This document shows positions 4,994-5,948 of a DNA stretch of 61,979 nucleotides, in pieces (within the stretch, counting starts at the first letter, position 1; each line of letters starts with the position of its first letter). The stretch lies in sequence record PV340552.1; one strand, given 5' to 3'. A program made the translations under genes and the position numbers. The notes beneath the pieces were generated by a model, which saw nothing but the letters and a program-made list of their open reading frames with translations, searched no databases and was not told the origin of the DNA. The stretch is from Escherichia phage PhiR12_3.

Positions 4994-5275
4994 TCATTCT
5001 GGCGGCGCTTCCCCCAGAGAAGAAATATCATCACCGGATTGCCACATCCACTCCGGCCCCTGCCATCTCAGATCCGGTGAATCATTTCTCTCAGGAATAA
5101 CTATTACGTTCCTTTCCATCCGCTCCCTTTCTATCGCCATCACAGCCAATGCTGCAACCATGATGTATTTTTGCTCGTCGGTTCCTGTTTCATAGCGCCA
5201 CATGAGGGTAAACTCGGGGCGATCAGTAACCTCAATGATTTCGTTAATTTCTTTAATTTCGCGAGGAATATCCAT
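4994..5275 (-). CDS. Hypothetical protein (uncertain)
   Basis: ORF 4994..5296; start codon overlaps divergently the start of the DUF4145 gene; no recognised motif. Confidence 0.3.
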   Translation of the reverse strand: MDIPREIKEINEIIEVTDRPEFTLMWRYETGTDEQKYIMVAALAVMAIERERMERNVIVIPERNDSPDLRWQGPEWMWQSGDDISSLGEAPPE

Positions 5276-5948
5276 GGGTTTAGTCTCCTTTGACATTACA
5301 TGCCCGCACTGTTTAAAAGAGCGAGCTGTTATTGAGGCATTTGCCGAAAAACAAATTGAAAAAACACCTCTTTTTAACGTCGCTTTTGTATGCAGAAGTT
5401 GTCATCAAGGAGGTGTTGCTATTGTTGAAATCCCATCAGACCACTATCACGGCCCTATGGCGGAAAGCCAGAAAAAAGACCTTGATATTCTGATTTCAGG
5501 AAATAGCCAGTACCGTTTCCGCAAGATCTATCCTGCGGTCAAAAAAATTACCGCACCAGAATCTACGCCCCCGGTTGCAGACCGTACTTTTGTTGAGGCA
5601 AAAGAGGATTTACAGAGGAGGCGGTACGACACAGTGGTTATTCTTTGTCGCAGAGTCCTCGATATCTCAACGAAAAAACTGCTCGGCGATGAAGCAGGAA
5701 AAGAATCTCTGTCGCAACGTATTCAGATGATTTACAAAAAAGGCCTGATCACTGAACAGATGAAGGAATGGGCTCATATTGTACGAATAGATGCCAATAA
5801 AGCAGTTCATACAGATGAAGTATTCACACCAATTGAGGCAAGCCAGATACTGAGTTTTACCGAAATGTTTTTAGTCTACGCCTTCACTCTGCCTGCAATG
5901 GTGGAAGCCAGATGTGACCAAAAAAGATCAGATTCAGCCTCTATATGA
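5274..5948 (+). CDS. DUF4145-domain protein with N-terminal Cys4 zinc-ribbon (candidate Abi/defence protein)
   Basis: ORF 5202..5948; likely start ATG 5274 (MGLVSFDITCPHCL...CRSCH); C-terminal region resembles DUF4145. Confidence 0.6.
   Translation: MGLVSFDITCPHCLKERAVIEAFAEKQIEKTPLFNVAFVCRSCHQGGVAIVEIPSDHYHGPMAESQKKDLDILISGNSQYRFRKIYPAVKKITAPESTPPVADRTFVEAKEDLQRRRYDTVVILCRRVLDISTKKLLGDEAGKESLSQRIQMIYKKGLITEQMKEWAHIVRIDANKAVHTDEVFTPIEASQILSFTEMFLVYAFTLPAMVEARCDQKRSDSASI

Follow-up and report, generated by a model that had tools for sequence, protein, structure and literature searches.

A RAZR-like zinc-ribbon DUF4145 protein and its head-to-head small partner gene form a candidate phage-defence module of lambdoid prophages

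The closest described system to the locus reported here is RAZR, the ring-activated zinc-finger RNase of Escherichia coli UMB1727 that was previously named PD-T7-4 (PDB 9y9c; Zhang et al., Nature 2026, PMC13017515). RAZR consists of an N-terminal Cys4 zinc ribbon and a C-terminal DUF4145 domain that works as a HEPN RNase, and its defence requires the residues R146 and H154 (PMC13017515). It is a single-gene system for which abortive infection has been shown experimentally and which is not toxic when overproduced alone (PMC13017515). Activation occurs by assembly of a 24-mer around phage ring proteins, namely the portal or the Erf-like Gp77, and specificity is determined by the variable zinc-finger domain (PMC13017515). 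Here we describe a gene of the same architecture on Escherichia phage PhiR12_3 (sequence record PV340552.1), a lambdoid prophage of the Shiga toxin (Stx)-converting type. The whole stretch of DNA analysed comprises 61,979 nt and is referred to as the window. The gene (5274..5948, plus strand, start codon ATG at 5274) encodes a protein of 224 amino acids (aa), a predicted sensor-RNase, and is therefore called the RNase gene in the following. It begins head-to-head with a small gene on the minus strand (4994..5275), and an initial annotation made from the sequence alone had proposed that it might belong to an abortive-infection module.

The domain content given in that annotation was confirmed. 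The N-terminal, variable half of the protein (sequence MGLVSFDITCPHC...CRSC) carries the two zinc-ribbon knuckles C10-P-H-C13 (5301-5312) and C40-R-S-C43 (5391-5402), which together occupy 5301..5402 on the plus strand. The C-terminal half, for which a resemblance to DUF4145 had been noted, matches this Pfam family (PF13643, HEPN superfamily/clan CL0291) over residues 118-197 with an E-value of 3.4e-9 and 37.1 bits at a cut-off of 23.1. A search of the 224-aa protein against NCBIfam gave no match. The protein collection contained 83 homologues of 212-225 aa, all of which carry PF13643 and which derive mainly from Enterobacterales and in a few cases from Paraburkholderia and others. When 32 family members were aligned, C10, C13, C40 and C43 proved invariant, and so did R171, N175 and H179, for which a catalytic role in the HEPN/DUF4145 domain is predicted (motif R171-x3-N175-x3-H179; 5784..5810, plus strand). 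The two halves differ in their overall conservation, with a mean majority fraction per column of 0.47 in the N-terminal ribbon half versus 0.76 in the HEPN half, and the zinc ribbon is presumed to be the sensor. An AlphaFold2 model computed from the 32-member alignment reached a predicted local distance difference test score (pLDDT) of 90 and contains four N-terminal strands (residues 4-52), a helix and a strand, and a helical C-terminal domain with the all-alpha fold of HEPN proteins. Because of the invariant residues and the model, the protein consists of a zinc ribbon joined to a HEPN-type domain whose catalytic residues are intact. Among solved structures, the nearest folds found by Foldseek against PDB were weak matches (E about 0.1) that include the HEPN toxins of HEPN-MNT systems, and the family profile searched against PDB sequences weakly matched the zinc ribbon of RPB9 (E 0.3).

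The likeness to RAZR extends over several properties. Both proteins have the same two-domain order, with a Cys4 zinc ribbon (CPHC...CxxC) followed by DUF4145/HEPN, and they are of similar size (219 aa in RAZR, 224 aa here). The catalytic arginine and histidine are eight residues apart in an R-x3-N-x3-H context, the zinc-ribbon half is the variable half, and both occur on mobile elements of Enterobacterales. Specifically, the Arg-His spacing of R-x7-H is like that of R146/H154 in RAZR and differs from the canonical Rx4-6H. The 219-aa RAZR sequence used for comparison was rebuilt from two partial entries, and its length and the positions of R146 and H154 agree with PMC13017515 and PDB 9y9c. An hhalign comparison between our family and the RAZR family resulted in a probability of 90% and an E-value of 1.6e-6 at 24% identity over 110 columns, all within the HEPN half, and the family profile matched RAZR 9y9c marginally (E 0.15). 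RAZR 9y9c was not among the matches in either of the two structural searches, whose libraries may or may not contain this entry.

Unlike the single gene of RAZR, members of the 224-aa family lie antisense inside lambdoid prophage operons and have a conserved divergent partner. The initial annotation had reported that the start codon overlaps divergently with that of a 93-aa minus-strand open reading frame (ORF), and this overlap is indeed present: the minus-strand ATG (5275-5273) and the plus-strand ATG (5274-5276) share two nucleotides within a CATG junction (5273..5276). It had also considered that the minus-strand ORF might lack conservation, and here we found the opposite. We examined loci with a gene for a relative of the 224-aa protein (15 genomic, 80 viral), and scanned a hidden Markov model (HMM) built from six small-ORF sequences over all six-frame segments of the fetched loci. 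The model matched 64 loci in addition to the window (65 in total, with 41 distinct sequences), and these paired loci come from prophages of several genera. With its offset of +1, the CATG junction is shared by all paired loci in which the RNase has 43-100% identity to that of the window; the most distant three pairs (L011, L012 and L014) are a few bases off the CATG overlap. The ribosome-binding sites of the two genes are interleaved as well. The Shine-Dalgarno (SD)-like sequence GAGGAA of the RNase gene (5263..5268, plus strand) is located inside codons 3-5 of the small gene, and an SD-like motif was detected at the same place in 29 of 31 distinct junctions. Conversely, the SD sequence AAGGAG of the small gene (complement of 5285-5290, minus strand) is located inside codons 4-6 of the RNase gene, with SD-like motifs in 17 of the 31 junctions and purine-rich sequences in the remainder. 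It follows from this geometry that each mRNA has, in its 5′ leader, a stretch antisense to the ribosome-binding site and first codons of the other.

The small ORF is not a chance ORF, since it matches PHROG 8371 (phrog_8371) with an E-value of 9e-48, is annotated in RefSeq relatives as an 81-aa hypothetical protein with a 2-nt overlap with the DUF4145 gene, recurs at the 64 loci mentioned above, and is under purifying selection. The ratio of nonsynonymous to synonymous substitution rates (dN/dS, Nei-Gojobori) in its core was 0.03-0.25 in informative pairs; the comparison of L062 with L072, for example, showed 16.5 synonymous and 4.5 nonsynonymous differences. It is thus a protein-coding gene under purifying selection, as is the RNase gene, and a conserved feature that distinguishes the 224-aa RNase family. 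Conservation concerns only the first 57 or so residues (residues 1-57 in the window, 5105-5275), in which a core of about 55 residues follows the pattern ...(S/A)DRPEFTLMQRYE..(D/E)QK...ALIGKLIEQDRML; the tail is variable and most relatives have 60-81 aa. The length of 93 aa in the window is due to a frame change near the 3′ end (4994-5060, compared with L001 and L003), so that the protein ends in ...RWQGPEWMWQSGDDISSLGEAPPE as opposed to ...RWQDPEWDVAIR in most E. coli relatives of 81 aa. AlphaFold2 predicted three helices (residues 7-16, 20-30 and 33-54) with a pLDDT of about 85 in the core (7-54) and a disordered tail. Searches of Pfam, NCBIfam and PADLOC gave no family match, which includes MNT and other antitoxin families. 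A word-indexed search with the small protein returned close E. coli relatives only, and an exhaustive phmmer search of 1.84 billion representatives returned nine matches, of which the long ones were of low complexity.

For comparison, one cluster of RAZR homologues with four loci was examined. None of these loci matched the small-ORF HMM, and those with an upstream flank adjoin an integrase in chromosomal islands. In the E. coli RAZR homologue P0087 (L100, about 3860-4507), the annotated protein of 168 aa lacks the first knuckle, HCSHC, which is cut off from it by an in-frame stop (…KTLEGY*). Many RAZR relatives in the databases have 146-168 aa and no first knuckle, and these may be truncated genes or genes with mis-called starts.

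At 49 of 63 paired and 21 of 32 unpaired loci, the RNase gene runs antisense to its two flanks. Because the long ORFs on both flanks share the strand of the small gene in those 49 paired loci, the RNase gene is the lone antisense gene in a phage operon, of which the small gene is a part. With this orientation, phage early transcription crosses the whole RNase gene antisense before it reaches the small gene. Nearly all homologues are found in prophage or viral contigs, and the clade occurs in Shiga-toxin phages of E. coli and Shigella as well as in prophages of Enterobacter, Klebsiella, Serratia, Yersinia, Proteus, Photorhabdus, Burkholderia and others. The RNase allele was present in 37 and the small gene in 48 of 5426 complete E. 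coli genomes, and the RNase gene was also found in a handful of isolated phages. The similarity shared with E. coli genomes and with the phages 75/02 Stx, POCJ13 and PhiR5_2 corresponds to the pair, a segment of about 990 bp (window about 4978-5969). In these three phages the pair sits in the nin region between the replication genes and ninB, and since it is located in the early-left region in the window, it has moved as a unit. The RNase gene is an antisense 'moron' in a variable prophage cargo slot. A sister subfamily of 212 aa (L008, L016 and L077-L098; for example L016, 6001-6639) has the N-terminus MAM... and 43-45% identity; at L016, the only locus of this subfamily that was read closely, the gene adjoins a terminase-small-subunit-like ORF. 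Genes of this subfamily, too, are for the most part antisense to their flanks (the 21 of 32 unpaired loci given above). Furthermore, distant relatives of the RNase with 25-35% identity over near full length are encoded in unrelated phages, such as Escherichia phage Cartapus (H127/H128, 207-854), where the gene lies at the very start of the 33-kb genome record, and Burkholderia phage phi644-2 (H124, 39884-40501).

Other defence proteins with DUF4145/HEPN domains are BxaP (PMC10799925), Ishtar1 (bioRxiv 10.64898/2026.07.06.735840) and DS-38 of DefensePredictor (PMC13092281), and DUF4145 is also known as a C-terminal domain of type I restriction enzymes (PMC3710099). They have the DUF4145/HEPN domain and a proven or proposed role in conflict in common with the 224-aa family. 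In BxaP and Ishtar, however, the HEPN domain is N-terminal and paired with other C-terminal domains, and a divergent small partner is found neither in these two nor in DS-38 or the DUF4145 type I restriction enzymes. Judged by length only, DS-38 appears to be a different family from the 224-aa proteins, as it has 366 aa (WP_001313577.1; 8089-9189, Table S6) versus 224 aa. The accessions WP_032144013 and WP_001624507 of the 224-aa family were not found in the supplements searched. HEPN-MNT toxin-antitoxin (TA) systems of type II/VII (e.g. PDB 5yep, 7ae2) have a nucleotidyltransferase partner in the same operon, whereas the partner here is a helical protein of about 60 aa that is divergently encoded and has no family match.

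On balance, and with modest confidence, we favour the explanation that the RNase gene encodes a prophage-borne abortive-infection RNase of the RAZR type, welded to a small gene in an arrangement that would make the expression of the two mutually exclusive. An infecting phage would be sensed through one of its proteins by the variable Cys4 zinc ribbon at the N-terminus, and recognition would switch on the C-terminal DUF4145/HEPN domain with its residues R171, N175 and H179, which in turn would cut RNA and thereby halt translation in the infected cell. As a lone antisense 'moron' in the early operon, the RNase gene could be expressed from a repressed prophage. Judging from the geometry of the junction, a lysogen would make the RNase only, while upon induction or during lytic growth early transcription would run antisense to the whole RNase gene and deliver the small protein. 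It is more speculative that the small protein damps or neutralises the RNase and so spares the phage its own suicide system.

A precedent for such self-protection is sieB of P22 and lambda, an exclusion (abortive) gene in the early-left operon of lambdoid prophages, to which it is antisense. Phages carrying sieB protect themselves during lytic growth by means of a second product (esc) and an antisense RNA (sas), and this is the logic that we propose for the RNase and the small gene. The SieB proteins are unrelated, however, and contain neither a HEPN domain nor a zinc ribbon, and Esc is made from within sieB rather than from a divergent gene. A bolder form of the proposal, which we regard as unlikely, is that the CATG pair constitutes a self-contained lysogeny/lysis switch, in which the mRNAs are mutually antisense at their 5′ ends and early transcription would both silence the RNase and make a dedicated inhibitor of it. 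If true, this would explain how a prophage can carry an abortive-infection sensor directed against conserved phage proteins without killing itself on induction, and the solitary small genes of other phages would be anti-defence genes against this RNase.

A number of observations weigh against the favoured explanation. The catalytic loop (residues 173-178) is the sole low-confidence segment of the AlphaFold2 model of the RNase. A single-protein phmmer search against PDB sequences had RAZR 9y9c as its sole match, with an alignment that spans the catalytic motif (IVRIDANKAVH in the 224-aa protein, ICRIVGNQAVH in RAZR), which speaks for the link to RAZR, but the E-value was 1.1. The PADLOC model for PD-T7-4, a check suggested by the initial annotation, was matched with an E-value of 7e-4 and 17 bits over profile positions 62-158 of 211, which is the HEPN part only, and the protein is thus not a recognisable member by this model. 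In the alignment of the two families, in which few rows of the RAZR family had a complete ribbon, the ribbon halves share only CPHC. The residues D179, D180 and R184 of the higher-order interface of RAZR (PMC13017515) align in hhalign to V201, Y202 and L206. Furthermore, about 30 additional residues that form a helix and a strand are inserted between ribbon and HEPN domain, compared with the conserved short linker 66-79 of RAZR, and ring-templated activation is therefore not to be assumed; the family may yet oligomerise through another interface. With regard to expression and the role of the small protein, a sigma-70 consensus scan identified no promoter upstream of the RNase gene or of the small gene, in a region where such consensus sites are fewer than in shuffled sequences; the AlphaFold2 model of the small protein matches no known fold; the 212-aa subfamily has neither the small partner nor the CATG junction; and the small gene also occurs in solitary form, with another N-terminus (MNNKINIP...) and an SD sequence of its own. 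Solitary copies were seen at L002 (5829-6089) and in the proteins P0214, which represents 81 member sequences on 170 contigs, and P0219, none with an adjacent DUF4145 gene, and they may be remnants or independently useful genes. We conclude that the 224-aa protein combines the architecture of RAZR with a homologous effector domain and belongs to a separate clade; the activation mechanism of RAZR cannot simply be transferred to it. The original suggestion of an abortive-infection module thus gains from RAZR, an abortive-infection RNase of the same architecture (PMC13017515), and from the antisense position of the gene in a cargo slot, and loses from the weak PADLOC match. The idea of a defence function was right in kind, since architecture and defensive role are known from RAZR.

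The main rival explanation, possible but in our judgement doubtful, is that the RNase acts by itself in the manner of RAZR, with the small gene being an ordinary early phage gene that is tied to it by physical linkage only. Because the ribosome-binding sites are interleaved, recombination cannot separate the two genes undamaged, and the pair would travel together without any functional link. This would be in line with RAZR being a single-gene system (PMC13017515), with the existence of the partnerless 212-aa subfamily, and with the co-orientation of the small gene with the flanking phage genes. It would also agree with the solitary small genes, which have their own N-terminus and SD sequence, and with the finding that about one in four E. 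coli genomes with the small gene has it without the RNase allele (48 genomes versus 37 with the RNase allele). Two observations are less easily accommodated: the CATG overlap is kept down to 43% identity of the RNase and about 30% identity of the small protein, and the pair was relocated as one unit of about 990 bp to a different region of the phage genome.

The remaining explanations are less likely than that of a physically trapped neighbour. It is quite improbable that the two genes are a TA pair in which the HEPN protein is a constitutively toxic RNase and the small protein a labile antitoxin, stabilising the prophage or its cargo island. HEPN toxins with small partners are common (PMC3710099), the nearest solved folds include such toxins, the module is located among TA cassettes, and solitary small genes could be orphan antitoxins. 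In contrast to type II TA operons, however, the genes diverge and are not co-transcribed, the small protein matches no MNT or other antitoxin family, the small gene is missing from the entire 212-aa subfamily, and RAZR alone is not toxic when overproduced (PMC13017515). Least probable of all is a function for the phage itself, as a nucleic-acid-binding regulator or RNA-processing factor of the lytic/lysogenic programme: although phrog_1305, NC_029120 and NC_025434 are annotated as 'DNA binding protein', zinc ribbons often bind nucleic acids and a position among early genes would suit a regulator, we found no experimental basis for this label and nothing on this protein in a full-text search of the DUF4145 literature, the HEPN residues R/N/H are invariant, the gene is antisense to the surrounding operon, and its sporadic occurrence (the 37 of 5426 genomes and few phages given above) speaks for accessory cargo rather than a core phage function.

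The prophage carrying the module is most similar to the Stx2a-converting phage Stx2_112991, which covers 77% of the first 20 kb of the window at 96% identity. An integrase gene is located at 111-1355, and the early-left genes of the window are on the minus strand. The module is flanked by two antirepressor-type genes on the minus strand, an ORF6N gene (3276-3947) on one side and a gene matching phrog_1726 (6022-6759) on the other, and the interval between them (3948-6021) holds a TA cassette and the pair of RNase gene and small gene. As the sister phage VT2phi_272 (L103, 3973-5316) has other cargo on the plus strand in the same place, namely two antitoxin-like genes and a lipoprotein gene, this interval is a variable cargo slot. 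The TA cassette in the window consists of a RelE/ParE-like toxin gene (4290..4660, plus strand) and an intact antitoxin gene of the helix-turn-helix (Xre/MqsA-like) type (4653..4973, plus strand; Pfam HTH_3, E 3.5e-9; phrog_2104, E 3.9e-41). The toxin gene is frameshifted by a 1-nt deletion in the A-run at 4332-4335, which has four A in the window versus five in E. coli 2013C-3033 (L002) and the IMG/VR contigs L020 and L021, and with the intact 123-aa gene of NZ_CP027323 as reference its reading frame is lost after about 14 codons. Either the toxin gene is truly inactivated or the sequence contains a homopolymer error. The cassettes that adjoin near-identical copies of the RNase pair are of at least three different kinds, with a TA pair or an antitoxin, and none of them was detected next to distant RNase homologues. 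With neighbouring cassettes that vary and are not present at distant loci, we rejected the TA pair as a part of the module; it is co-resident hotspot cargo and not a conserved partner. Of the accessory island that the initial annotation had drawn around RNase gene, small gene and TA pair, the variable cargo slot thus holds up, but the TA pair is not a conserved member and its toxin gene is frameshifted.

Several possible transcription signals were noted on the minus strand of this region. A terminator-like hairpin (6826-6803) is found just upstream of the antirepressor gene at 6022-6759, in the interval 6748-6826, and is followed by a good match to a sigma-70-like promoter (TTGAGA-16-AATAAT, 10/12). 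Transcripts from this promoter match would cross the RNase gene antisense and reach the small gene. A second terminator-like hairpin with a T-run is located at 5679-5697 inside the RNase coding region, in the path of antisense read-through toward the small gene; it is no more than a match to the consensus, and its stem is weak (six pairs, three of them G-C).

Domain architecture and defensive role are already known from RAZR. What is new is a distinct and widespread prophage clade that is missed by current defence models, and the strictly conserved start-to-start fusion of its RNase gene with a small gene. By its sequence, the pair appears to be a credible candidate for a phage-defence module, if not a wholly new one. 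From RAZR it is known that phage assemblies of megadalton size can be sensed by a tiny zinc-finger RNase. The 224-aa family would extend this principle to a distinct prophage-borne clade, which could affect which phages superinfect Stx lysogens. The head-to-head partner furthermore offers a testable handle on how prophages escape killing by their own abortive-infection genes, and the finding would gain in significance should the two genes turn out to act as a switch for self-protection.

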